Positions 3,704 to 17,608 of a stretch of DNA of 64,000 nucleotides are shown here, one piece after another. The notes beneath the pieces were generated by a model that saw nothing but the letters and a program-made list of their open reading frames with translations, made no database searches and was not told the DNA's origin. The stretch lies in IMG/VR virus record IMGVR_UViG_3300037307_000190. One strand, written 5' to 3'. Source of the stretch: a virus. The translations under genes were made by a program, and so were the position numbers. The number at the start of each line of letters is the position of its first letter. Positions within the stretch are counted from its first letter, which is position 1.

Positions 3704-5401
3704 ATGACAGCAGAGGAACTGAAGAAGCTGGCGCAGCAAGCGGCCGTTGACGACGCCACCGCCTACAACGCGCGCGTGCGTCCTCCCCCTGGGAGCATCG
3801 AAGAGGGCCAGCGCATCCGGCAGACACTGGCGCAGCCGAGCGAGCCGCTGAACATCAGCCGCGCAGCGCGCACCGGGGAGCCGTACCGCGACCCGCGCCA
3901 AGCCATTCCAAGGCCGCAGACATCCGTGCCGCGCGGTGTTCCGGGCGTCGATCTGCCGCGTTTTCAACTGCCGCCCGAAGCTCCGAGCGGCCCTGTCAAC
4001 TGGGGCAAAGTCGCGTCCAAGGCCGGCACCGCACTCGGGGTTGCCGGACCTGCGCTGGGCAACATCAAGGATCTGGTCGACCCCAACCTGTCCTACGGCA
4101 CGCGGACGAAGATGCTCGCCAGGGACATCGCTGGCGGAGCGGCAGGAACAGCGATGGCGGCACCCGCGATCGCGGGCCTGTCATCTGCGGGTCCGATCGG
4201 TATTGGAACCGGCCTCCTGCTCGGAGCCGGCCTTTACGAGACAGGACGACGAGGCACCGATGAGATCATCGGCCGCACCAGGGACTTGGCAAATCGCGCC
4301 GTGAGTGCTGCTGGCGGGCCGTTGAACTACTTCACGTCGGTCGAACAGGATGTTCAGCGCGACACCGCAGGCCGGGCGCAGCGTTATCCGCCCGCTCCAT
4401 TCGCTGCAGATGCGTCACGGACAAACGCCGTCCGCGACACGTCGAAGTTCCCTGTCGATCAACCCGCTCAGGGGAAAAGCCGCGCGCCGGCCAAGCCATC
4501 GATCGACGCACCTGTTGCGCGCGTGCCGCGCCCACGCCGCGCCGGGCAGGCTGCCGCGCGGTCGCCCATCGACGAGAACGCGATCGACGCCGCGCCACCG
4601 CAAGTCACGCGCCGCACGCTTGATACCACGCCCTACACCCCCGAGCAACAGCAGGCCATCTGGGCCATGCAGGGTGGCAACGCAACAGCCAAGCCTGCAG
4701 GGATCAACTACATCACCAACGACCAGTTGTTCGCGGCGGGCGAGCAGGGGCCGCGGTTCACTGTTCCGCAGGACAATGCTGTCTATACCAACGCACCGGG
4801 CAACGTCACTGCGGCGCCGGGCAGCAACATCGCAGTGGTCGGCCCCGGCGAGCGCTACTTCTCCGCCGGTAATGTGGCGGTGCCGCAGGCCGTCGACGAT
4901 GCGACCGCCCCAGCGTATCTTTCGGCGCAACGTCAAGCGGCTGTCGACATGGCCAATCCGGTCGAGGCCAAGCTGCGCATCGAGTCGGAGATTCAGAAGC
5001 TGAGGAACCAAGGCGGATTGGCCGAGGCGCAGACCTCGGCGGGGCCGGCATACGCTCGGCTGAAGTTTGAGCGCGATCAGTACCAAGACATGCTCTTGGG
5101 TAAGGGGCCAAAGGCGCCGACGAAGGCGACTATGCCGCAAGTCGTCACCTACGATCAAGACGGCAAGCCGTACACGGCGGGCGGTGGCGATGCGTTCCTC
5201 ATGCCGGATGGAAGCACCCTGCTGCCTGCCCCGGACGGCAGCGGCTACATCAGGACGGTGCCGCGCCAGCAGTCGGTCGTCGACAAGTACATGAACAATC
5301 CGCAGATCGACGCCATCAGGAAGCGCACGGACCTCACCACCGATCAGAAGAAGCAGGAAATGCAGAAGCTGATTCAGCGTCTCGAAGCGGTGCAAAAGTA
5401 A
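3704..5401 (+). CDS. hypothetical virion-module protein (565 aa)
   Basis: ATG 1 nt after the upstream TGA (MTAEELKKLAQQ...), in frame with track ORF 3650..5401. Gly/Ala-rich central region and high GC3. Confidence 0.7.
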   Translation: MTAEELKKLAQQAAVDDATAYNARVRPPPGSIEEGQRIRQTLAQPSEPLNISRAARTGEPYRDPRQAIPRPQTSVPRGVPGVDLPRFQLPPEAPSGPVNWGKVASKAGTALGVAGPALGNIKDLVDPNLSYGTRTKMLARDIAGGAAGTAMAAPAIAGLSSAGPIGIGTGLLLGAGLYETGRRGTDEIIGRTRDLANRAVSAAGGPLNYFTSVEQDVQRDTAGRAQRYPPAPFAADASRTNAVRDTSKFPVDQPAQGKSRAPAKPSIDAPVARVPRPRRAGQAAARSPIDENAIDAAPPQVTRRTLDTTPYTPEQQQAIWAMQGGNATAKPAGINYITNDQLFAAGEQGPRFTVPQDNAVYTNAPGNVTAAPGSNIAVVGPGERYFSAGNVAVPQAVDDATAPAYLSAQRQAAVDMANPVEAKLRIESEIQKLRNQGGLAEAQTSAGPAYARLKFERDQYQDMLLGKGPKAPTKATMPQVVTYDQDGKPYTAGGGDAFLMPDGSTLLPAPDGSGYIRTVPRQQSVVDKYMNNPQIDAIRKRTDLTTDQKKQEMQKLIQRLEAVQK

Positions 5402-5404
5402 GCA

Positions 5405-8400
5405 ATGGACGACCTCGACAGACTGCTCGCCGGCCCTCAGTCGGCCGATCCATACGATCAGTTGCTGGCTGGTCCGCGCGGCCGTGCGCAACCGGCGCCC
5501 AAGGCCGAGCCGCAGCCCGGGTTCATCCCAACCGTCAAGCGCACGGGTGGGCAGATGCTCACCAGCCTTGCGCGCTCGATCGAAGACATCGGTGGTCCAC
5601 AGGCGATCTCGCAGCCCATTCGGCAGACCGGCGAAGCCATCGTCCAGAGCAACCCGGCCGGCATCGGAAGTCTGGAACAAGCCGCAGAAAGCCCGTGGCT
5701 GACCGTCAAGGAAGCCGTTGGACAAATGGTTCCGCAAGTCGGCGCAGCCGGTGTCGGCGCAACGCTGGGTGGGATCGCTGGCCGCGCAATCGGCTCGCGC
5801 TTCGGCGCGGGTCAACTGGGCGAGAAAGCCGGCCGCTATGTCGGCGGCCTGTCGCCGATCTTTGTCCAAGAGTACGGCGGCGTTCGCGACAAGCAGGTGG
5901 CCGGTGGGCAGGAAGACAAGCTGCGCGCGCTCGGTGCCGCCGGTATCTCGACCGGCCTTGAAGTGCTCGGGCCTGAGGCGAAGGTCATCAAGGGTCTGGT
6001 CGGCGCTCCGCTCAAGATGGGCGTCAAGGACGTCGGCATTGGGGCGCTGAAGCAAGCCGGTATCGAAACCTTCACCGAGGGCACCCAAAACGTCGTTGGA
6101 CAAATTGGTGCCTTTGAAGACCCGACGACTCCACAGGCGCTCGATGAAACCGCGCTGTCTGCGTTGATGGGCGGCATCGGTGGTGGTGTGGTCGGTGGCG
6201 CGTTGCGTGGCGCTGAATCACTGATGGCCCCGGGGGAGCAGGAAAAGGCGCCGGCGATCGAAGAGCCACCGCCGCCGCAACTGCCCTATGCGCCAGACCC
6301 GCTGGTGGTGTTCCCCGACGGTTCGGTGGCGTCGAAGTCCGAAGCCGAGAAGATCATTCGGGCGCGCGAAGCCGCGGCACGCCCGTGGATGCAGCCGACC
6401 GCCCCGCTGCCGGAAGAAGGGCCGCTATCCAAGACCGTCAACCGCGCGGTCGAGCAAGGAGTTGTCAGTCCTGATCTCGCGCCAGCCGAGACGATGGGAG
6501 GTGAAGATGTTGCCCGCACTACAGGAGCTGGTCAGCCTCAAGCTGCTATCGGTGGAGGAGGCCCACCAACTGGACGAGGTGGCCAAGCGCAGCCCGGCGG
6601 AGTTCCTGAGCCTGCCGCTGCCGCTGCTCAAGCGCCTGCTCCAAGCGCAGAGGCTGGCGGCGTTCAACGTGGCCGACCAGACAAGGCACTGACGGCGCCG
6701 GCCGATTGGCCGGTTCAGTACGGCAAGGGCGTCATCAAGACCGTCTCCGCGTTGGAGAAGTACCGCAGTGACGTGGTCGCCGACATCACGCGGTTGTCCA
6801 ATGGTCCTCAGAAGGAGGCTCGCAGAGAAACGTTGGCTCGCATCGATGCGTCCATCGCTCAAGCGAACGAGGAATACACCAATGCAAGGACTGACGTGCA
6901 AGGCGTGCGAGCGCCCGAGGGTGGAGGAGTGCCGGCTGAGAGGGTGGCCGAATCTGTGCCGCCTGCGGGAGAAGTTGTTCCCGCACCCGGACAGCCCGTA
7001 CCCGCCACTACCGGACGAGCTGCTAAGCCCGAACAGCAGCCCGCAGCGCAGGTCGTTCCTGCTCAAGTTGTGGAAGGGGCGAATCGACCCGAGCAACCCG
7101 CAGTGGCAACCGACGTTGCCCGAGTGGAAGGTACTCAAGGAGTAGCCAATGAACCCGTTGCACAACAAGCCGCCGTGCGGCAAATGCCAGAAGGCGCGAC
7201 TGTTGATGAGGAAGCTCGGCCTGCCGGTGCCGTTGTTGCACCAACCGCCCCGGCAACCAGCGCTGCTGGCGAAGCCGCCTTCCAACCCGTGGCTGCAGGG
7301 CCAGTCAACCGGCCCGATGGCGGAGTCACCCGAGTCGATGAAGCGGCCAACGTAGCTGCAACGAGTCAGACCGTCGGACCAAGCGCGTCTGCCGAGGCAT
7401 CTCTTCCAGTTCAAGCTCAACCCAATGCAGCGCCCCCGGCATCCGTTTTTGAGAGTGGCGGGGCAACGGTGTCGCAGGCAGGGGTGCCCAGCGAACCCGA
7501 GCCGGCGGGCGCTGCGCCACGCCAGGGCAAGATAGGCGACAAGCTGGCGGCTGGCGAAGTGGTGCTCACCGCCAGCGGCAGGGCCACGACACCGTTTCCC
7601 AAGGTGTCGATGGGGTCCAACCGCGCAACGACCAACACGGTCAGATCCGTGGACCGATGGTTGCTCGAAAACGCGGCGGCCGAGGCGCAAGCGCGCGGCG
7701 ACGACTTCAATGCGCGCACGTTCCAAGCCGATGCGCAGAGCAAGAGCATGCCGCCGGCATCGAAGGACGCGGCCGAGGAGTACCTGTTCGGGCAACAGCC
7801 TAGCGTGGTGCCGAGCATCCTCAAGCCGCTGTCACCATCTGCAACCCCCCAGGCACCAGCCCCCGCACCTGAAACCGCCCAAGGCGCTGCGACGCCTGCG
7901 GGGGTTGCGCCCACTCGCGCCCAGTTCGAGGGCTTCGATCGCGTGGAGGTGAAGACCGACGCCGGCTGGAAGCAGGGCGTGGTGAAGATGGCCGGCTCGC
8001 AAGAGGTGACGGTCAGGCTTGACGACGGCAACGACGTGACTGTTCCCGAATCGAACGTGGTGCCGGTTGCGACCGCCCTAACCCCGGAAGCTGCCCCGGT
8101 CAGCGCAGCGCCACTAGGAGAAAGCAATGCTCAAGAAATCGGCATCCAACAAGGCGTTGGAGACCCTCTCGGCGGAGATGCAGCCCGGCAAGCCGCAGAA
8201 GCAGCCGGCGGCAATCGCCTACTCGCAGCAGCGGGCGGCGCAAAAGTCGCAGGGCAAGTCGGTATCCCCGCCACCGAAGGCGGCGCCGCGCAAGTCGGCG
8301 GGCCGGGGGCGATAGGAGCGGGACAGGCCGCCCCGCCGATCGCGGCCCCAACTGAAGGAGTCCAACGTGGGCAAGTCCAAGAAGGGCGGGGGCAAGACGC

Positions 8401-11400
8401 CACCCAAGCCCTGCTGAGTCAGGAGCCGCCGCCGCAGATCCCTCCTGCGGCGGCGCCTACCAACATCCCCACCGAGAAGCCCAAGATCGTCCCGAGCAAG
8501 AACACCATCTTCACCGACGAGATGAGGGAATCGGCTCGCGCAGTGCTGCGCAGCAAGCTGCGTAACATCAACAGCGGCCTCGACCCGGAAGTTGTTCAGG
8601 CCGGCATCACGATCGCCGGCTATCACATTGAGAAGGGTGCGCGCACGTTCGCGGCCTACGCGAAGGCCATGGTCGCTGACCTTGGGCACGGCATCAAGCC
8701 GTACCTGAAGAGCTGGTACATGGCGGCGAAGTACGACGATCGCCTGTCACCCTTCTCCAAAGAGATGGACGACGAGAACACGATCTTGTCGTGGCGCCCA
8801 TCCGAGTTGAAGAGCCCTGAAGGCCGCAACGAGGTTGCCAAGGAAGTCGCCGCGCACTTCGACGCCGGCAACGCATTCCCGACCATCAACGAAGCGCGCA
8901 CGTTCGTCGCCAGCCTCACCGGCGAGAAGATCGAGCCGGGTACGCAGGAAGCCAAGCTCACCGACGAGGCCGTAGAGAACGGAGTCGTCCTGGCCGCGCG
9001 CAAGATCGTGGCCGCCGGCCGCGAGCAAGGCCAGGACGACGGCGCCATCTTCGGTCGGCTGGTCAAGTTGTATGACAGCCAGCCGAATCTTGGTGTGCGG
9101 TCTAGCACGAGCATCCGAGAGCAGGCGTACTCGACGCCGACGCCGCTGGCGTTCATCACATCGCGTCTGGCCAACGTGAAGCCGACCGATCGCGTCGGCG
9201 AGCCCACCGCCGGCAATGCCGCGCTGCTTGTCGAGGTCGATCCGAAGAATGCCGTCGTCAATGAACTGAACCCGGATCGGGCCGACAATCTCAAGCAGCT
9301 CGGCTTCTCGCCGTCGGCCAACGACGCGGCGACGACCGATCTGGCGACGCCGAAGAGTCTGGACGTGGTTTTGATGAATCCGCCATTCGGCGCCGTCAAG
9401 GACGCAGAGGGCAACACCAAGTCCTATCAGCTCACCGAGAACGTCAGGACCAACGAGGTCGATCAAGCCATCGCGTGGAACTCCCTGAAGGCCATGAAGG
9501 ACGACGGCCGGGCCGTGTTGCTGCTCGGCGGCGTGGATGCGACCGACCCCGAACAGATCCGCGAGGGGTACAGATCGCGGGCCAAGCGCGAGTTCTACTG
9601 GCGCCTTTACAACGACTACAACGTCGTCGACCATTTCACCGTGGACGGCGGTCTTTACTCGCGTCAGGGTGCGGGGTATCCTGTTGACGTCGTTGTCATA
9701 CGTGGTCGCGGGAAGACGCAGGGACGCCAACTGCCGGCGGCGCAACTGCCGGATCGGCTGACGAGCTGGCAACAGATCAAGGAGCGTGCAGATGGCCTCG
9801 CGCAAGAACGTAACGCTGGTGCCCTTCTGCCCGGAGTACGTGGACCCGGAGCTGGGGTCGGTGCTGGTCCCGAAGGGGGAGGTGTCGCAAGCCCAGTGGT
9901 GGGAGGCCCTGGCGTTCCGGGTGGCGGAGCTGGTGAGCAAGGAGCACGACCCGCAGGCGGCAATGTACCAAGCAGCGAGGGCGCTGGGAACCGGCCTACC
10001 GGACGACCCGCAGGAAGCGGGAGCAATGTTCGTCCTGTCCAACCTGCAACTGAAAAACGCCCTGTCGCATCAGGCGAACGACCACAGCCTGCAGTTTCCG
10101 GCGAAGGCGGCGCTCGGAAACCCGTCGGCCAAGCAGGCACTCAAGGAGGTCGACCTTCAGAGGTGGGTGGAACTCGCGTCGTCACAGGTGAGCGAGTCGA
10201 GTCTGGAATAGGTGCCGACCGGCGCGGTCAGGAAACCGAAACCGCAACTCAGGTCGCGTACAAGCCGAAATCCAAGGTTCCATCGGTCGGCACGCTGGTG
10301 CCGGTGAACCTGCGCGATCCGATCCAGGAATCGCTGAGCCGCATGGAGCAGGAGCACGGCAATCTCGACACCTACGTCGCCAGGGAACTCGGCATTCCGC
10401 TTCAGGACGCGCGCGACTACTTCTCGGCTGAACAGGTCGATGCGCTGGCGATGGCGATCCACAACGCCAACAACGGCTCGGGCTTCATCATCGGCGACCA
10501 GACCGGCATCGGCAAGGGTCGGGTGGTGGCCGGCATGATCCGCTACGCGATGAAGCAGGGCAAAGTCCCGTTGTTCGTGACCGAGAAGCCGAATCTGTAT
10601 GGCGACATGATTCGCGATCTCGACGACACCGGCATGACCGATGTCCTGAAGCTGGACACCAGAACCCCGGCGATCTTCATCACCAACGAAGAAACGATTC
10701 CATACTCGCTGATTCGCCAGATCGACGGCGAGAGCGTTGAACGGGCGTTGAAGCTCGCGCCGCCGGCCCGCGGCAAATCTCTCGCCGCAGCAATGGCCGA
10801 GATGCGCGACAAGAACAGTATCTCTCCGTACAAGGTGATCTTCACCACCTACAGCCAGATTCAGACGCAAAGGGGTGGAGCGACCGAGCGGATGCGTTTC
10901 ATCCAGCAGCTTGCGGACGGCGGCTTCGCCATCTTCGACGAAAGCCACAACGCGGGCGGGACGACCGTCACTCAGCCGCGCACCAAGGAGCAACGAGCAG
11001 CCGCCAAGCAAGGTGAAACGACGATGGGCCGCGCGGCATTCGTGCGCAAACTCGTTTCCAAGGCGTGGGGAACGCTGTTCTCGTCAGCCACGTATGCAAA
11101 GCGGCCTGACGTGATGGATCTCTACAGCAGCACGAACATGCGGCTGGCCGTTCCCAAGCTTGCCGATCTGGCCGACGCCATCACGGACGGCGGTGTGCCG
11201 ATGCAGCAGATCGTGGCGACGATGCTTGCCAAGGACGGGCAGTACATCCGTCGCGAGCGCACGTTCGCGGGCGTGGACTACAACACACGCGCGATGACGG
11301 TTGATCGCGAGACGGCCGAGAACATGGCCGAGTCGATGCGCGAGATCCTGAAGTTCTCGCGCCGGATGCAGACGCTGCTCAAGCAAAAGCAGAAATACCT

Positions 11401-14400
11401 CGACACGGAAGGCGTGAAGGTCGGCACGCTGGAAGGCGGCGAGAAGCAGACGATCCAAGCCACCAACTTCGGGTCGGTTATGCACAACCTCATCGACCAG
11501 ATGCTGTTGTCGTTGAAGGCCAAGGATTCGGTGGCGTTCGCCATCGAGCGGCTGAAAGCCGGCGAGAAGGTGGTGCTCACCGTGAGCAACACGATGGGCA
11601 GTTTCATCGAGAACTTCGCCGATGAAAACGGGCTGCGCAATGGCGACGCGATGTCGCTGAACTTCGGCGACCTCTACATACGCTACCTCGACAAGCAGCG
11701 GTACTACAAGGTGAAGACGCCCGGTGGCGCCACCGAGGAACGTTACATCGAAGACGAGGAAATGTCCGAGAAGGACTTGGCGCTGTACAAAGAGACGCGG
11801 GCGTTCATTAAGGGCGCAGGGTTCGGTGACGCACCGGTGTCGCCGATCGATTACATGCACCAGCAGCTTCGTGCCGCCGGCTACAAAACGGACGAGATCA
11901 CCGGACGCAACGTCGGGGTCAACTATGAAACGGAGATCCCGACGCTGCAATCGCGCAACGGCAGCATCAAACAGCGAGTCGATGCCATTCGCGGGTTCAA
12001 CAACGGATCGGTAGACGCCCTGATTCTCAACCAGTCGGGAGCTACGGGGCTGTCGCTGCACGCCTCGTCAAAGGTCCAAGACAAGCGGATGCGGCACATG
12101 ATTATCGTGCAGCCCGAAAAGAACATCGACACGCACGTCCAGATGTTGGGTCGGGTTCACCGCACGGGTCAGGTGAGGGTGCCGGCCTACACGCAGGCGA
12201 TGGCTGACATTCCAGCGGAGATGCGGCCAGCCGCGGTGCTGCTGAAGAAGATGGCGAGCCTGAACGCCAACACAACGGCGTCTCGCAAGAGCGCGGTGAC
12301 GGCAGAAGGCGTCGTTGACTTCATGAACGACTACGGTGGTCAGATCGCCATCGAGTACCTTGCGGACAACCCAGATGTCCACCAGTCTATCGGCGGCAAC
12401 AAGGTCATCGCGATCCCCGAAGATCCGAATGAAGCTAACGAAGACGTGATCCGCAAGCTCACGGGCTACATCCCGATCCTGCCAATTGCGACGCAGGAGA
12501 AGGTGTACGCGGATCTCGCGCAGCGGTACAACGAACTCATCGCCCGCGAAGACGCGATGGGAACCAACAAGCTCGAAGCGCGCACGCTCGATCTCGACGC
12601 AAAGACCCTGGGCCGTGAGTCGATCACCGAGAACAAGAGGGGCGACAGCATCTTCGCGCAACCGGCCTACATGGAGCGCGTCGACGTGAAGCGCACCGTC
12701 AAGCCGATGACCAACGCAGAGGTCGATGCGGCCATCGCCGAGCGATTGGGTGACAAGACGCAGCAGCAGTTCATCAACGATCTGTACGACACCGCACTGA
12801 AGGAAAAGGACGCCTTCATCGAACGTCGGGCCGCCGAACTGACGGAACTCGGTGCGGATGCCACACGCATCCAGCTCGTCAAGGACAACGTGAACCTGCA
12901 ATGGGGCACGGTGGCTGCGGTGCTGAGAACCTATCCTCCGGGCACGCGCGTGACGATGACGACCTCCGACGGCACGATCAACCACGGCACGGTGCTCGAC
13001 ATCCAGAATGCGCGCACGACGGCCAACCCGGTCGCCGGTTCGTCTTGGAAACTGACGCTGGCGCTCGTGAACGCTGATGCGCGTGTGCTGCAGATCAACG
13101 TTGGCCAGATCGGTACGCGCTACAACCTCAACGTCACCAACGTCGAGATCCCGGTCATCATGGGGACGGGAGGCGTCGAGTGGGTGACTGTCAAGGAGCT
13201 GCACGATCGTGGCCCCAACGTGCGGCGCGAGCGTCGCTACATCGTGACAGGCAACATCTTGGCGGGCTATTCCACCTACCAAGGTCAGATCATCACGTAC
13301 ACGAAGGACGACGGCACGACCGGGCAAGGCGTGCTGATGTCCAGGCTGTTCAACTTCGAGAAGGTTAAGGCAAGGAACATCAAGTTCACGTCGGCGGCGC
13401 CGCTGATGCAATTCCTGAAAGAGAGCGCCGATGCCGTCGTCACAACCGACGGCGGCCTTCGCGTCACCAAATGGAACGACCAGTATGTCTCGTTCCAGAC
13501 AGCGCCCTCCAAGCGTGAAGGCGGCCGCTACTTTCTCGACAAGCGCTTGACGGAAATTCTGCGCACTGACTTCTTCACGGTCAGCGGCAAGATGGTTGCT
13601 CGCGTGCGCGGCGGCGATGTCGAACAGATCGTGCGTCAGGCGCTCGAATACCTCATCACGGAACGCGACGAGGCATTCACCCCGCGCAACAACGTCGAGA
13701 AGGCCAAGAGCATCCTCGGCATTGGCAAGGTCGAAACGCCGACCATCAAGGCGCCCGAGCTGGACTTTGCGCCCGAGGGCGAGAAGCCGTCTGACCTCAA
13801 AGCTGGCGCGCGGGCGCCGGATCTCGACATACCGCCAGAAGGTGGCGGAGACGTCCGCTTCTCCCGCCAAGCCACCTCCCCCTGGTACAGCGACCTCGCC
13901 CGCCACGTCGAGAAGGCCGCAGGCGGCCTGCCGATGTTCGCTCGCGGCGAAGCGCAGGCAGCACGAGTCGTCGAAGTCCAGAAGCTCGCCGACTCGATCA
14001 CGTCCGCCTGGAAGGACGCGCCGACGATCAAGGTGGTCGAGAGCCTGCGTGACGAAGGCGTTCCAGAAGCGATCCGCAAGCAGGACCAGAAGCAGACTGC
14101 AAGCGGGGCCGCCAAGGGAGCGTCAGCCGTCTTCTACAAGAACACCGTCTATCTGGTTGCGGGTTCGCTTGGGACGCAACGGCAGGTCGCCGAAGCGGTG
14201 TTTCACGAAGTCCTCGGGCACTACGGGCTGCGCGCCACGTTCGGGGCGCAACTCAACCGCATCCTCGACAACATGGCACGTGTCAACCGTGCGCAGATCG
14301 AAGCCAAGGCCAAGGAGTACGGCCTCGACTTGAGCAAGGAAGGCGACCGCAGGATGGCGGCTGAGGAGGTGCTGGCCGATCTGGCAGAGAAGCGCCCGCA

Positions 14401-17400
14401 ATCGGGCTGGGTAAAGCAGGCGATCGCGGCGATCAGGACATGGCTGCGCGAGAACCTGCCGTCGGTGTTCGGCGACATGAAGATGAGCGATGCGGAACTG
14501 GTCCGCAACTACATCCTCCCGGCCAGACGGACGGTTGAGACAGGCACGCCAGCCAAGGGCGAGGGCCGCGCGGCATTCCAACGCGCGCCGATCGTGACGG
14601 AGACGCCGGAGTTCAAGAAGTGGTTCGGCGACAGCAAGGTGGTGAACGCTGACGGCAAGCCGCTGGTGGTGTATCACGGGACGACGGCTGATTTCGACGT
14701 GTTCGATCTCTCATGGACAGAAGTATCTCCGCGTGGAAACACGGCAGGAGCAGGTTTCTTCTTCGGGGAGTCTGCTCTTGAGGCAGAGGGATACACATGG
14801 GGTGCGCGCGGGCCAGAAGGCTCGATCATGCCGGTGTATCTGTCGATCAAGTCCCCCTACGTCATTGGCGAGAACAAGTACGACGATCCGGTATGGAATC
14901 GGATGGTTCAATCGAAGTCAGAAGCAAAGCGGGTGCGCGAAGAGCTGGTCGCCCAGGGGTACGACGGCATTCGCACCGCCCTTGGGGAGTGGGTTGCCTT
15001 CCGCCCCGAGCAGATCAAGAGCGCCACCGGCAACAGCGGCGCCTTCGACCCGACGAACCCGGACATCCGGTTCAGCAGGCGATCCACCGAGCTGCCCGAG
15101 TGGATCAGCAGCGGGCCTGCGGCTCTGCAGTCGGCGGCCAGAAAGTTCGAGACGTTCGCTCCCGGCAAGACGATCGGCGAGAAGTTCGACCAGTGGAAGA
15201 CCGGCCTGCTGGACCGTCTGATTCAGGGAACGATTGACGCCTACCTGCCGCTGAAGCGGCTGGACATGGACGCTTACATCCAAGCTCGGATGACGAAAGC
15301 GTCGGACGGCGCGCTCGAAGGCACGCTGCTCTACGGAAAGCCGGTACTCGACGACGACGGTGGCGTGCGCGGCATCCTCGATGGCAAAGGCTTCCTAGGT
15401 CTGATGCAAGACCTCAACGGCGAGCACGATCGGTTCCTGCTGTGGGTGGCCGGCAACCGCGCTGCGCGCTTGTATTCGGAAGGCCGCGAGAACCTTCTTG
15501 AGCCCGAAGAAATCAAGGCGCTTCAGAAACTCGACAAGGACGTGATGACGGACGGACGCCAGCGCGCACAGGTCTACGAGAAGACGCAGCGCGAGTTCGC
15601 CCAGTTCAACAAGGCGGTGCTCGACTTCGCCGAGAAGGCCGGGATCGTCAACGGCACAGACCGCGACCAGTGGGAAGCCTACTTCTACGTGCCGTTCTTC
15701 CGCGTCAGCGAAGACAGCACGATCGAGGGCCCGTCGGTGAAGGTGCGCGGGCTGGTCGGGCAGCAGGGCATCAAGCGCCTGCTGGGCGGCAAGGACAACA
15801 TGGGCGACCCGCTGCAGAACACGATGATGAACTGGTCGCACCTGTTGTCGGCATCGCTCGCCAACGTCGCGGCCGGCAAGGCGCTGCGGGCCGCGCAAGC
15901 GCAGGGCGTGGCCGAGCAGACCACCGAAGCGGAGGCGCGGATCGTTGCCAAGGCATCGGGCTTCAGGGATGGCGCCGTTTACTACATGAAGGACGGTCAA
16001 AGGCAGTGGTACATGGTGGCCGACAACGCGGTGCTCTCGGCGATCACGTCGCTCGAACCGGTTGGGCTCAAGGGGCCGGCGTTCAAACTCATGCAGAAGG
16101 CCAAGTACTGGCTGACACTTGGCGCGACCATCTCGCCGGCGTTCAAGATCCGAAACCTCCTGCGCGACACCGTGGCCGCACCGGGCATCAACCAGATGTC
16201 CTACAACGTCCTGTCCAACGTGATTCAGGGCTGGAAGGGGACGAAGAAGACCTCGGAGCACTACCAGCAGATGATGTTCTCGGGTGGCCTGATGCGATTC
16301 GGCACGCTGATCGAAGGCGAGCGCGGCTTGCACGCCAAGCGGCTGATCGAGGCCGGCATCAAGGACCAGACCATTCTCGACACACCCGAAAAAATCAAGG
16401 CCGCGACGACCAAGTTGTGGGATACGTGGCAGGAGTTCGGCGACAGGATGGAGAACGTCAATCGTTCTGCCCTGTACGACCAGCTCAAGAAGCAGGGCAA
16501 GAGCCATCGGGAAGCTGCATTCCTCACGCGCGACCTCATGGACTTCTCGCTGCACGGCTCATGGGCCGGCATGAGAATCCTCACGCAAGTCGTGCCGTTC
16601 CTGAACGCCCGGATTCAGGGCCTCTACAAGCTGGGCCGCGCCTACAAGGACGACCGCAAGCGCTTCGCCACGATGACGGGCGCGGTGGCCCTGACATCGA
16701 TCGCTTTGATGCTGGCCTACAAAGACGACGACGAGTGGAAGCAGCGGGAAGACTGGGACCGTGACTTCTACTGGTGGTTCAAGCTCGACGGCGTGGCCTA
16801 CCGCATCCCGAAGCCGTTCGAGATTGGCGCCCTGGGCACGATCGCCGAGCGCACGGCGGAACTGCTGGTGGACGACGAGATGAACGGCAAGCGCTATGCG
16901 GAACGCCTGAAGCAGATGGCGCTGCATACATTCAGCATGAACCCGGTGCCGCAGTTGTTTAAGCCGATGGTCGACCTGTACGCGAACAACGACTCGTTCA
17001 CCGGCCGCCCGATCGAGACGTTTGCGATGGAGGGCCGATCGAAGTCAGAGCGCACCGGCCCCAGCACGACGGCGCTCGCAAAGTTCCTCGGCTCTGCTGG
17101 TGACGTGACGGGCGTTTCTCCGGCACAGATCGATTTCGTCATCGGCGCCTACTTCGGCTGGCTGGGGATGATGACCGCAGCCGTCGTCGATACCGCGGTC
17201 AGCCCCGTGTCGTCCGTGCCGGCGCCGGCCAAGCGTTGGGACGACTGGGCCATGCGATTTGCCACGGAGCTTCCTGAAGCGCAGTCTCGCTACGTCACGA
17301 ACTTCTACAACTCGGCCAAAGAAGCGCAGGGCATCCTGGCCGATCTGCGCGCGGCGCGCGAAGAGCGCGACATGGAGCGGATCGCCGAGCTGATGGCCGA

Positions 17401-17608
17401 TCCGAAGATGGCGACCGCCAAGATGTTCCAGACGCAACAGCGGCGGTTCACAGAGTTGTCGAAGCGCATTCGCGTGGTGCGCGCCGATCGAGAAATGGAC
17501 GGCGACACGAAGCGCGATCGCCTCGACGAGTTGACCCAGCAGCGCAACATGCTGGCGAAGGTCGTCATGGAGCGAGCTGAGCGAGCCCAAGCACAAGCGC
17601 AGCGATGA
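5405..17608 (+). CDS. giant multidomain 'polyvalent' virion protein (4067 aa): MTase + SNF2-type helicase + HExxH peptidase-like + ART-like + PLxRFG-type C-terminal module
   Basis: Uninterrupted 12.2-kb ORF. Motifs read from the translation:
- EPTAGNAAL and LMNPPFG
- GDQTGIGKGR, FDESHNAGG and QMLGRVHRTGQ
- FHEVLGH
- VYHGT..GAGFFFGE..EWVAF
- GLMRFG
This domain mix matches DarB-like polyvalent proteins of phages and conjugative elements (recollection). Confidence 0.85.
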   Translation: MDDLDRLLAGPQSADPYDQLLAGPRGRAQPAPKAEPQPGFIPTVKRTGGQMLTSLARSIEDIGGPQAISQPIRQTGEAIVQSNPAGIGSLEQAAESPWLTVKEAVGQMVPQVGAAGVGATLGGIAGRAIGSRFGAGQLGEKAGRYVGGLSPIFVQEYGGVRDKQVAGGQEDKLRALGAAGISTGLEVLGPEAKVIKGLVGAPLKMGVKDVGIGALKQAGIETFTEGTQNVVGQIGAFEDPTTPQALDETALSALMGGIGGGVVGGALRGAESLMAPGEQEKAPAIEEPPPPQLPYAPDPLVVFPDGSVASKSEAEKIIRAREAAARPWMQPTAPLPEEGPLSKTVNRAVEQGVVSPDLAPAETMGGEDVARTTGAGQPQAAIGGGGPPTGRGGQAQPGGVPEPAAAAAQAPAPSAEAGGVQRGRPDKALTAPADWPVQYGKGVIKTVSALEKYRSDVVADITRLSNGPQKEARRETLARIDASIAQANEEYTNARTDVQGVRAPEGGGVPAERVAESVPPAGEVVPAPGQPVPATTGRAAKPEQQPAAQVVPAQVVEGANRPEQPAVATDVARVEGTQGVANEPVAQQAAVRQMPEGATVDEEARPAGAVVAPTAPATSAAGEAAFQPVAAGPVNRPDGGVTRVDEAANVAATSQTVGPSASAEASLPVQAQPNAAPPASVFESGGATVSQAGVPSEPEPAGAAPRQGKIGDKLAAGEVVLTASGRATTPFPKVSMGSNRATTNTVRSVDRWLLENAAAEAQARGDDFNARTFQADAQSKSMPPASKDAAEEYLFGQQPSVVPSILKPLSPSATPQAPAPAPETAQGAATPAGVAPTRAQFEGFDRVEVKTDAGWKQGVVKMAGSQEVTVRLDDGNDVTVPESNVVPVATALTPEAAPVSAAPLGESNAQEIGIQQGVGDPLGGDAARQAAEAAGGNRLLAAAGGAKVAGQVGIPATEGGAAQVGGPGAIGAGQAAPPIAAPTEGVQRGQVQEGRGQDATQALLSQEPPPQIPPAAAPTNIPTEKPKIVPSKNTIFTDEMRESARAVLRSKLRNINSGLDPEVVQAGITIAGYHIEKGARTFAAYAKAMVADLGHGIKPYLKSWYMAAKYDDRLSPFSKEMDDENTILSWRPSELKSPEGRNEVAKEVAAHFDAGNAFPTINEARTFVASLTGEKIEPGTQEAKLTDEAVENGVVLAARKIVAAGREQGQDDGAIFGRLVKLYDSQPNLGVRSSTSIREQAYSTPTPLAFITSRLANVKPTDRVGEPTAGNAALLVEVDPKNAVVNELNPDRADNLKQLGFSPSANDAATTDLATPKSLDVVLMNPPFGAVKDAEGNTKSYQLTENVRTNEVDQAIAWNSLKAMKDDGRAVLLLGGVDATDPEQIREGYRSRAKREFYWRLYNDYNVVDHFTVDGGLYSRQGAGYPVDVVVIRGRGKTQGRQLPAAQLPDRLTSWQQIKERADGLAQERNAGALLPGVRGPGAGVGAGPEGGGVASPVVGGPGVPGGGAGEQGARPAGGNVPSSEGAGNRPTGRPAGSGSNVRPVQPATEKRPVASGERPQPAVSGEGGARKPVGQAGTQGGRPSEVGGTRVVTGERVESGIGADRRGQETETATQVAYKPKSKVPSVGTLVPVNLRDPIQESLSRMEQEHGNLDTYVARELGIPLQDARDYFSAEQVDALAMAIHNANNGSGFIIGDQTGIGKGRVVAGMIRYAMKQGKVPLFVTEKPNLYGDMIRDLDDTGMTDVLKLDTRTPAIFITNEETIPYSLIRQIDGESVERALKLAPPARGKSLAAAMAEMRDKNSISPYKVIFTTYSQIQTQRGGATERMRFIQQLADGGFAIFDESHNAGGTTVTQPRTKEQRAAAKQGETTMGRAAFVRKLVSKAWGTLFSSATYAKRPDVMDLYSSTNMRLAVPKLADLADAITDGGVPMQQIVATMLAKDGQYIRRERTFAGVDYNTRAMTVDRETAENMAESMREILKFSRRMQTLLKQKQKYLDTEGVKVGTLEGGEKQTIQATNFGSVMHNLIDQMLLSLKAKDSVAFAIERLKAGEKVVLTVSNTMGSFIENFADENGLRNGDAMSLNFGDLYIRYLDKQRYYKVKTPGGATEERYIEDEEMSEKDLALYKETRAFIKGAGFGDAPVSPIDYMHQQLRAAGYKTDEITGRNVGVNYETEIPTLQSRNGSIKQRVDAIRGFNNGSVDALILNQSGATGLSLHASSKVQDKRMRHMIIVQPEKNIDTHVQMLGRVHRTGQVRVPAYTQAMADIPAEMRPAAVLLKKMASLNANTTASRKSAVTAEGVVDFMNDYGGQIAIEYLADNPDVHQSIGGNKVIAIPEDPNEANEDVIRKLTGYIPILPIATQEKVYADLAQRYNELIAREDAMGTNKLEARTLDLDAKTLGRESITENKRGDSIFAQPAYMERVDVKRTVKPMTNAEVDAAIAERLGDKTQQQFINDLYDTALKEKDAFIERRAAELTELGADATRIQLVKDNVNLQWGTVAAVLRTYPPGTRVTMTTSDGTINHGTVLDIQNARTTANPVAGSSWKLTLALVNADARVLQINVGQIGTRYNLNVTNVEIPVIMGTGGVEWVTVKELHDRGPNVRRERRYIVTGNILAGYSTYQGQIITYTKDDGTTGQGVLMSRLFNFEKVKARNIKFTSAAPLMQFLKESADAVVTTDGGLRVTKWNDQYVSFQTAPSKREGGRYFLDKRLTEILRTDFFTVSGKMVARVRGGDVEQIVRQALEYLITERDEAFTPRNNVEKAKSILGIGKVETPTIKAPELDFAPEGEKPSDLKAGARAPDLDIPPEGGGDVRFSRQATSPWYSDLARHVEKAAGGLPMFARGEAQAARVVEVQKLADSITSAWKDAPTIKVVESLRDEGVPEAIRKQDQKQTASGAAKGASAVFYKNTVYLVAGSLGTQRQVAEAVFHEVLGHYGLRATFGAQLNRILDNMARVNRAQIEAKAKEYGLDLSKEGDRRMAAEEVLADLAEKRPQSGWVKQAIAAIRTWLRENLPSVFGDMKMSDAELVRNYILPARRTVETGTPAKGEGRAAFQRAPIVTETPEFKKWFGDSKVVNADGKPLVVYHGTTADFDVFDLSWTEVSPRGNTAGAGFFFGESALEAEGYTWGARGPEGSIMPVYLSIKSPYVIGENKYDDPVWNRMVQSKSEAKRVREELVAQGYDGIRTALGEWVAFRPEQIKSATGNSGAFDPTNPDIRFSRRSTELPEWISSGPAALQSAARKFETFAPGKTIGEKFDQWKTGLLDRLIQGTIDAYLPLKRLDMDAYIQARMTKASDGALEGTLLYGKPVLDDDGGVRGILDGKGFLGLMQDLNGEHDRFLLWVAGNRAARLYSEGRENLLEPEEIKALQKLDKDVMTDGRQRAQVYEKTQREFAQFNKAVLDFAEKAGIVNGTDRDQWEAYFYVPFFRVSEDSTIEGPSVKVRGLVGQQGIKRLLGGKDNMGDPLQNTMMNWSHLLSASLANVAAGKALRAAQAQGVAEQTTEAEARIVAKASGFRDGAVYYMKDGQRQWYMVADNAVLSAITSLEPVGLKGPAFKLMQKAKYWLTLGATISPAFKIRNLLRDTVAAPGINQMSYNVLSNVIQGWKGTKKTSEHYQQMMFSGGLMRFGTLIEGERGLHAKRLIEAGIKDQTILDTPEKIKAATTKLWDTWQEFGDRMENVNRSALYDQLKKQGKSHREAAFLTRDLMDFSLHGSWAGMRILTQVVPFLNARIQGLYKLGRAYKDDRKRFATMTGAVALTSIALMLAYKDDDEWKQREDWDRDFYWWFKLDGVAYRIPKPFEIGALGTIAERTAELLVDDEMNGKRYAERLKQMALHTFSMNPVPQLFKPMVDLYANNDSFTGRPIETFAMEGRSKSERTGPSTTALAKFLGSAGDVTGVSPAQIDFVIGAYFGWLGMMTAAVVDTAVSPVSSVPAPAKRWDDWAMRFATELPEAQSRYVTNFYNSAKEAQGILADLRAAREERDMERIAELMADPKMATAKMFQTQQRRFTELSKRIRVVRADREMDGDTKRDRLDELTQQRNMLAKVVMERAERAQAQAQR
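6507..6692 (+). CDS. nested +1-frame small ORF (61 aa) inside a giant-ORF linker
   Basis: GGGAGGTG is followed by 4 nt and then the ATG. By hand count, 55/61 third positions are G/C in this frame against 22/62 in the host frame over the same stretch. The peptide MLPALQELVSLKLLSVEEAHQLDEV... has normal composition. Confidence 0.45.
   Translation: MLPALQELVSLKLLSVEEAHQLDEVAKRSPAEFLSLPLPLLKRLLQAQRLAAFNVADQTRH
6882..7145 (+). CDS. nested +1-frame small ORF (87 aa), Cys-rich N-terminus
   Basis: GAGGA lies 8 nt upstream of the ATG. The nested frame has high GC3 while the host frame turns A/T-ending. Peptide begins MQGLTCKACERPRVEECRLRGWPNLC... Confidence 0.4.
   Translation: MQGLTCKACERPRVEECRLRGWPNLCRLREKLFPHPDSPYPPLPDELLSPNSSPQRRSFLLKLWKGRIDPSNPQWQPTLPEWKVLKE
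7149..7355 (+). CDS. nested +1-frame small ORF (68 aa) with a CGKC motif, coupled to the preceding nested ORF
   Basis: AAGGAG precedes the ATG, which lies 3 nt after the TAG of ORF 6882..7145. MNPLHNKPPCGKCQKARLLMRKLGL resembles a redoxin-type N-terminus. High GC3. Confidence 0.4.
   Translation: MNPLHNKPPCGKCQKARLLMRKLGLPVPLLHQPPRQPALLAKPPSNPWLQGQSTGPMAESPESMKRPT
8127..8315 (+). CDS. nested +1-frame small basic ORF (62 aa)
   Basis: TAGGAG lies 6 nt upstream of the ATG. By hand count, 56/63 third positions are G/C against 35/63 in the host frame. MLKKSASNKALETLSAEMQPGKPQKQPAAIAYSQQRAAQ resembles small basic proteins with a KQA(I/V)AI..S.AR motif (recollection). Confidence 0.5.
   Translation: MLKKSASNKALETLSAEMQPGKPQKQPAAIAYSQQRAAQKSQGKSVSPPPKAAPRKSAGRGR
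8367..8417 (+). CDS. nested +1-frame micro-ORF (16 aa, MGKSKKGGGKTPPKPC)
   Basis: GAAGGAG lies 6 nt upstream of the GTG, in the same frame as 8127..8315 and 51 nt after its TAG. It may be the severed tail of that ORF. Confidence 0.25.
   Translation: MGKSKKGGGKTPPKPC
9120..9760 (+). other. N6-adenine DNA methyltransferase-like domain of the giant protein
   Basis: Motif I-like GEPTAGNAAL at about 9200-9226. Motif IV NPPF at 9377-9388, in frame with 5405. Confidence 0.7.
9792..10211 (+). CDS. nested +1-frame ORF (139 aa) inside the Gly/Pro-rich linker between the MTase and helicase domains
   Basis: AAGGAG lies 7 nt upstream of the ATG. Nearly every codon ends in G/C, while the host frame reads gga/ggt/gct/caa codons. 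The peptide MASRKNVTLVPFCPEYVDPELG... is globular-looking. Confidence 0.5.
   Translation: MASRKNVTLVPFCPEYVDPELGSVLVPKGEVSQAQWWEALAFRVAELVSKEHDPQAAMYQAARALGTGLPDDPQEAGAMFVLSNLQLKNALSHQANDHSLQFPAKAALGNPSAKQALKEVDLQRWVELASSQVSESSLE
10490..12175 (+). other. SNF2/DEAD-like helicase domain of the giant protein
   Basis: GDQTGIGKGR at about 10492-10521, DESH at 10937-10948 and QMLGRVHRTGQ at 12140-12172. All are in frame. Confidence 0.75.
14204..14221 (+). other. HExxH zinc-peptidase-like motif (HEVLGH) in the giant protein
   Basis: The triplets cac gaa gtc ctc ggg cac read directly, in frame. Confidence 0.6.
14660..15022 (+). other. ADP-ribosyltransferase-like (ART-PolyVal-type) module of the giant protein
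   Basis: PLVVYHGTTADFDVFDL ... GAGFFFGES ... YDGIRT ... GEWVAFRPEQIKS resembles the H-Y/S-E type ART pattern (recollection). Confidence 0.5.

Follow-up and report, generated by a model that had tools for sequence, protein, structure and literature searches.

A nested gene in the coding sequence of a giant phage protein

The window, the whole 64,000-nucleotide stretch of viral DNA analysed here (IMG/VR record IMGVR_UViG_3300037307_000190), is a phage genome that includes genes for a major head protein and an endolysin. The features that concern us are the following, with positions counted from the first nucleotide of the window:

5405-17608, + strand: host gene, the open reading frame (ORF) of a 4067-aa phage polyvalent (DarB-like) protein
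8837-9790, + strand: adenine methyltransferase region of the host, with TP and NPPF motifs (invariant in alignment A6)
9779-9784, + strand: Shine-Dalgarno (SD) sequence AAGGAG of X, 7 nt 5′ of its ATG and read as Lys-Glu in the host frame
9791-10240, + strand: host-frame linker, the second reading of the X DNA (27% Gly, 12% Pro, aromatic residues nearly absent)
9792-10211, + strand: nested gene X, shifted to +1 with respect to the host ORF; its product is a 139-aa alpha/beta protein, acidic (pI 5.0) and belonging to a new family
10241-12340, + strand: Strawberry-notch-type SF2 helicase/translocase (Pfam AAA_34, Helicase_C_4)
14648-15046, + strand: ART-PolyVal ADP-ribosyltransferase domain, host residues 3082-3214 (domain match)
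16727-17251, + strand: LPD38 domain, host residues 3775-3949 (domain match)

Judged by its domain content, the host is a phage-type polyvalent protein, in which a methylase-SF2 helicase fusion is joined by ART-PolyVal and by LPD38, a marker of this class (PMC5512222), in a phage genome. The methyltransferase region has weak PHROG methyltransferase matches, its STP and NPPF motifs are without variation in alignment A6, and its 3′ end (9790) is the exact point at which X starts. The linker that follows, leading to the helicase, is composed of Gly, Pro, Ala and Val. The dyad of adenine methylase and Strawberry-notch SWI2/SNF2 ATPase is thought to be delivered together with the DNA, shielding it from restriction (PMC5512222), and by analogy with that account the window's protein may likewise be packaged in the virion and give DarB-like protection. 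Further downstream, host third-position GC content (GC3) falls to 0.47-0.6 at 14645-14825, within the ART-PolyVal domain, as if this part had been recently acquired or swapped.

A preliminary description of the locus correctly placed an ORF at 9792-10211 in the +1 frame of the 4067-aa ORF, and both peptides that it quoted are right. Its remark that the segment is exactly 140 codons long holds as 139 residues plus a stop (420 nt), although this is uninformative by itself. It also described the nested codons as almost all ending in G or C and the host codons as mostly ending in A or T; both tendencies exist and both were slightly overstated, with GC3 at 118/139 (85%) in the nested frame and 58/139 (42%, hence 58% A/T) in the host frame of the overlap. 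On either side of the overlap the host frame has a GC3 of 81-82%; this level returns near 10247, within the roughly 40 nt of the X stop that had been described.

The signals for initiation of X are well preserved among the 121 fused loci with a nested ORF that are described below. The SD site is conserved beyond codon bias: where the host frame has Lys-Glu at this position, AAG-GAG is used in 69 of 74 loci, against 28.3 +/- 3.8 expected. The start codon is ATG in 120/121 loci, and in 54/121 a +1-frame stop lies immediately 5′ of it, so that in those loci X must be separately initiated, with no entry by upstream frameshifting. A programmed +1 frameshift yielding a methylase-X fusion is thereby ruled out for these 54. 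No sigma-70 promoter was found near X. An independent metagenome contig carries the identical 420 nt, and the overlap is therefore not an assembly slip.

Selection on the two reading frames

DNA searches recovered 50 close loci, of which 49 have an open host frame (3,200-4,600 codons in complete cases) and, shifted to +1, the ATG, SD and stop of X; the remaining one, a short contig, carries a frameshift. Frameshifts within the overlap are seen in two short contigs, L051 (1570-1959) and L182, where error and decay are both possible. Among 39 distinct sequences, dN/dS in close pairs (80-100% DNA identity) is 0.30-0.33 in X, 1.08-1.09 in the host reading of the overlap and 0.08-0.23 in the host flanks, the pairs being non-independent and the overlap itself pushing both of its ratios up. 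Substitutions concentrate at the third positions of X, where T is depleted. When the synonymous codons of X are resampled in 35 loci, 312 host-frame stops are expected and none is seen; the host must therefore truly read through the overlap, constrained only for stops.

For the window's clade, these comparisons show X to be under purifying selection and the host reading to be kept open, selected only against stops. Thus the suggestion that the host reading is a passive by-product is borne out (dN/dS of about 1.1 in the overlap, with only stops avoided), while the term "overprinted", which the preliminary description applied to X, reverses the situation seen today, in which constraint falls on X and not on the linker. 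It could be argued that the +1 ORF is an untranslated by-product of codon bias in a Gly-rich linker, since G-initial host codons raise GC3 in the +1 frame. Against this stand the purifying selection on X, its absence on the linker, the conserved SD, ATG and stop, a confident fold and free-standing homologues; we consider an artefact extremely improbable and effectively refuted by the selection analysis.

Fold and family of X

The structure prediction that had been proposed as a check returns a compact alpha/beta protein (AlphaFold2 pLDDT 87.6, pTM 0.82). Together with purifying selection and free-standing homologues, this confident fold agrees with the original view of the ORF as a real gene for a globular protein. 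The predicted fold is well packed and is conserved at less than 20% identity. Acidity is also a common feature, with pI below 5.5 in 117/121 X proteins and at 4.2-4.7 in free Bacteroidota copies.

X is a new protein family without a clear fold match. None of 49 X proteins matched TnpV (PF14198) or any Pfam family, and searches of Pfam, PHROG, NCBIfam, PADLOC and PDB sequences gave only single-member matches with E above 0.008. Two X models found no clear match in the PDB, BFVD or ESM Atlas (best Z scores 3.1 and 3.2, TM 0.37, no Foldseek E below 0.26). X has the acidity of a putative DNA-mimic inhibitor, Ocr/ArdA-like in action, which would bind a DNA-binding enzyme.

Distribution among fused relatives

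Protein searches with X yielded 4 close and 65 wider relatives, and direct searches with X of cultured phages and GTDB genomes gave no matches; wider relatives were therefore gathered by searching with the helicase instead. Among 129 distinct fused loci, 121 contain a +1 ORF of 90-182 codons whose start lies at the methylase end; of control windows taken from the helicase coding region, 3.6% satisfy the same rule. The ORF starts within one codon of the window's offset in 108/121 loci, and 111/121 join one profile, scoring above all decoys. Linker length follows X length (r = 0.94 in 107 compact loci), and the linker is therefore X read in another frame. The preliminary description had named, as grounds against its reading, a peptide without homologues or fold and related linkers of unrelated length; X has homologues and a predicted fold, and linker length tracks that of X.

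Among the carriers are phages, cyanobacterial elements whose host proteins are 1,000-2,300 aa long, and contigs that were assigned to Paracoccus, Roseovarius, Desulfovibrio, Opitutales and Heliobacteriaceae. Fused proteins without X occur on Acinetobacter, Xanthomonas, IncC, Vibrio and alphaproteobacterial plasmids, in Burkholderiales, and in Ferruginibacter, the linker of which is 51 aa. Bacteroidales phages have an ORF of 103-144 aa at the same place, in the cultured Bacteroides phage BS-TP4 and in 26/26 related gut-phage contigs, with 0 host stops against 113 expected. Homology of this nested ORF to X is only suggestive (a weak match, hhalign E 0.017). In BS-TP4 itself (L058, PQ571277), the ORF lies at 6755-7102, encodes 115 aa and is omitted by GenBank.

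Several variants accompany this main pattern. A short nested form of 90-106 aa recurs across several branches of the helicase tree, and part of these ORFs join the X profile while part do not (L006, L122, L124, L125, L127, L134-L137, L147, L148, L152, L155, L159, L160, L175 and L179). On the Gloeobacter morelensis plasmid pGMOR1 (L220, 3492-3941), X is annotated by RefSeq (WP_230844304.1), which sets the helicase start at 3938 and drops the in-frame methylase. The X stop here overlaps a host-frame ATG (ATGA) that is preceded by an SD sequence, and because of this a helicase-only product may also be made.

Other linkers of the giant gene contain ORFs as well. At 6507-6692, 7149-7355 and 8127-8315 (+ strand) of the window are three SD-ATG ORFs of 61-68 aa, whose GC3 is 0.87-0.90. 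They are read in +1 across low-GC3 host linkers, and no homologues were found among the fetched loci. Two further +1 ORFs with an ATG and a weak SD, at 6882-7145 and 7425-7535 (+ strand), occupy the same low-GC3 stretch, the former ending 3 nt 5′ of the start of the 7149 ORF. In the N-terminal linkers of relatives, 24 such ORFs are in the +1 frame and 2 in the +2 frame, compared with 2 and 1, respectively, in the helicase region.

Separate and escaped copies

A search for homologues as independent genes, also part of the original proposal, succeeded and includes the exact order methylase, X, helicase in Bacteroidota. In these elements (L205, L208, L216, L218) methylase and helicase are encoded separately with a gene for 141-164 aa between them, and the three are mostly coupled. 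In L208 this middle gene matches the X profile (HMM E 8e-6 to 2e-4) and aligns with X end to end (hhalign global E 2e-4). Predicted secondary-structure elements of the two products are the same in order and length, the helices compared falling at 30-51, 54-65, 74-83 and 85-98 versus 33-49, 54-65, 73-82 and 85-97. No relic open -1 frame was found in the Bacteroidota free copies.

X is kept at the methylase end in the 121 loci and in split operons, even where the helicase is kilobases away (L193, L196, L198). At L183 (3768-4652), L212 (5563-6273) and L215 (6324-6908), unrelated genes that are not X lie between the split methylase and helicase, and the junction therefore accepts other cargo.

X domains are also found in bacterial islands, alone, in tandem, or behind T5orf172, ankyrin, membrane or unknown domains. 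Their neighbours are HTH, integrase, GIY-YIG, SNF2-Mrr, HipA and type IV CRISPR genes, and no methylase-helicase was seen within the few kilobases covered. Non-nested copies of the window's own X clade are placed among the nested ones, the island domains being scattered through it with 11 state changes on a weakly supported tree. In L255, the old host frame is open across the X domain (0 stops, 7.9 expected), and its end resembles the end of the host linker; L055 and L256 have a similar but weaker relic, and in L257 and L258 the old frame has decayed. On this reading of the relic frames, such copies are escapees from the nested state, L255 most clearly.

Low-GC bacterial islands also hold tandem arrays of X-domain genes (L054, 4588-5918; L056, 1466-2417), of which one adjoins an integrase and a polymerase-like gene and the other a type IV CRISPR-Cas locus. 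One shared unknown N-terminal domain is fused to X domains of three subclades (P0007, P0034, P0046), as if X had been captured repeatedly. A profile search for longer X fusions found none, which is weak evidence.

Origin of the overlap

Helicase trees were rooted with alphaproteobacterial plasmid proteins, one tree using a quick version of the mixture model. The split Bacteroidota operons and the nested Bacteroidales phages form sister groups (99/99), a single clade of all nested forms is rejected (AU p = 9e-5), and the base consists of three branches whose order is not settled. Because the outgroups are fused and lack X, and the split form lies within nested lineages, the shortest history that we infer is a fused gene that gained X in its linker; the gene would later have split in Bacteroidota, and a few lineages would have lost X. 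The methylase-helicase fusion has a wider range than X, which within the overlap is the constrained frame, the linker having no homologue. We give about even odds to the proposal that X was inserted, as a complete gene with its ribosome-binding site, into an already fused methylase-helicase gene; no pre-insertion donor was found, and the basal three-way split, the weak Bacteroidales homology and the lack of a relic -1 frame in the split genes all soften the argument for direction.

The preliminary description favoured an ancestral free-standing gene between two genes that became fused by read-through. The free homologues and the three-gene layout lend substance to the first half of this idea; the direction of events is where it falters. 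In such a history, the stop of the methylase in a methylase/X/helicase operon would have been lost, with read-through in the -1 frame of X into the helicase. The translationally coupled layout indeed exists in Bacteroidota, with a homologue of X in L208, the split genes there keep no trace of an open -1 frame, and the step is feasible, since in GC-rich genomes the needed frame is open by chance in 2-16% of trials. Yet X is missing from the outgroup plasmid proteins, which are already fused, and the nested Bacteroidales are sister to split operons, so that a prior fission would be needed and then two independent fusions into the same frame. Moreover, a host-frame Met just 3′ of the X stop, the expected relic of a helicase start, occurs in only 6/121 loci, and among the free chromosomal copies that were tested, some have plainly escaped from nesting. 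Read-through fusion is thus unlikely, and fission looks likelier. Birth of X de novo, by overprinting on an existing linker in a common ancestor and later becoming the dominant frame, is more doubtful still. It would accord with the lack of any known family or fold, with the position of non-nested copies of the window's clade among nested ones (some demonstrably derived), and with the enrichment of short, lineage-specific +1 ORFs with SD sequences in the other linkers (24 against 2 in +2). It sits poorly with an X that spans the linker end to end and sets its length, and with a well-packed fold kept at less than 20% identity over a host reading that has no constraint of its own.

Proposed function of X

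The comparative evidence makes it almost certain that two products come from the mRNA of the giant gene, a tether within the host protein and a free, folded X. Ribosomes on the 4067-aa frame would read the overlap as a Gly/Ala/Arg/Ser/Pro tether from methylase to translocase, and others would start at the internal SD-ATG and make X as a free, folded, acidic 15-kDa protein. On the insertion model, X would have arrived as a complete gene with its ribosome-binding site and come to lie in a frame compatible with an open host reading, as a natural "alternate-frame insertion", with the split operons and free copies arising afterwards. Made from the same mRNA, X would be produced in step with the methylase-translocase module. 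Given its acidity, X would most plausibly cover a DNA-binding surface and hold the enzyme away from DNA until packaging or delivery, and it may also dampen the same module when related elements bring it in. Taken as a whole, this explanation (two products, origin by insertion, function as a regulator of the module) has a probability that we put at roughly 0.55.

The leading guess on function, at somewhat below even odds, makes X an accessory regulator of the methylase-translocase module; it is suggested by the retention of X at the methylase end in both nested and split forms, its acidity and the shared mRNA. Plasmid relatives function without X, which is therefore not essential to the module, and X domains are seen in islands without a methylase-helicase in the few kilobases covered. 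When X was modelled in complex with the methylase and the N-lobe of the helicase, the score was 0.00, which counts neither way. The main rival, only slightly less probable, is that X has a role unrelated to the host protein (host takeover, counter-defence or superinfection exclusion) and is locked in place by the tether, which deletion or relocation of X would alter. About 11 separate escapes into other genes, including T5orf172, ankyrin and membrane fusions, speak for such independence, and their placement beside HTH, GIY-YIG, SNF2-Mrr, HipA, integrase and type IV CRISPR genes implies that X can act away from the module. Yet an in-frame deletion could spare the host, as the 51-aa linker of Ferruginibacter without X illustrates, and such deletions are rare; X also stays coupled to the methylase in split operons, where the lock is absent. 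A combination of these ideas is improbable: polyvalent proteins would swallow genes whose shifted frame serves as a tether, X being the oldest of them, a built-in inhibitor or partner of the injected module that bacteria then captured many times. If so, the bacterial fusions of X to nucleases, ankyrins and membrane segments would be decoy sensors or blockers against these phages.

Comparison with known nested genes

Bacteria and double-stranded DNA phages are generally considered to have few long nested genes on the same strand, and comparative proof exists for few of them. Among same-strand genes wholly nested out of frame are comS in srfAB, lambda Rz1 in Rz and phiX174 E in D; comS and Rz1 are shorter than X, and in all three cases the host reading is a constrained protein region. 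In contrast, the host reading of X is an unconstrained tether, and this gives the overlap an unusual polarity, in which the inner gene is the constrained partner.

Standard annotation misses this arrangement, which is both ancient and widespread. The overlap has been kept across more than 100 elements with proteobacterial, desulfobacterial, cyanobacterial, verrucomicrobial, bacillotal and probably bacteroidal hosts, and annotation always loses one partner, X in BS-TP4 (GenBank) and the methylase in pGMOR1 (RefSeq). As nested, split, X-less and escaped states are all extant, a tree can be used to follow how a gene overlap arises and is undone, and cultured carriers make the family testable. Nested out-of-frame genes are already known; this overlap and the X family appear new, no published description of either having been found in the largely open-access literature searched.

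The P1 DarB methylase-helicase dyad and related polyvalent proteins (PMC5512222) are of the same host type, with ART-PolyVal and LPD38; the nested gene is absent from the main text of that paper, where the words "overlap" and "linker" do not occur. The synthetic overlapping, alternate-frame insertion (OAFI; bioRxiv 10.1101/2024.11.07.622342) has the same design in engineered form, of which X would be a natural and ancient case. Similar in layout is mobB inside mobA/repB of plasmid RSF1010, likewise a small out-of-frame gene in a two-enzyme fusion (relaxase-primase) of a mobile element, whose two products act in the same process (PMC2200642). The proteins are unrelated to those described here, and the X pair occurs in phages, prophages and plasmids from many phyla, where split and escaped forms are seen as well.
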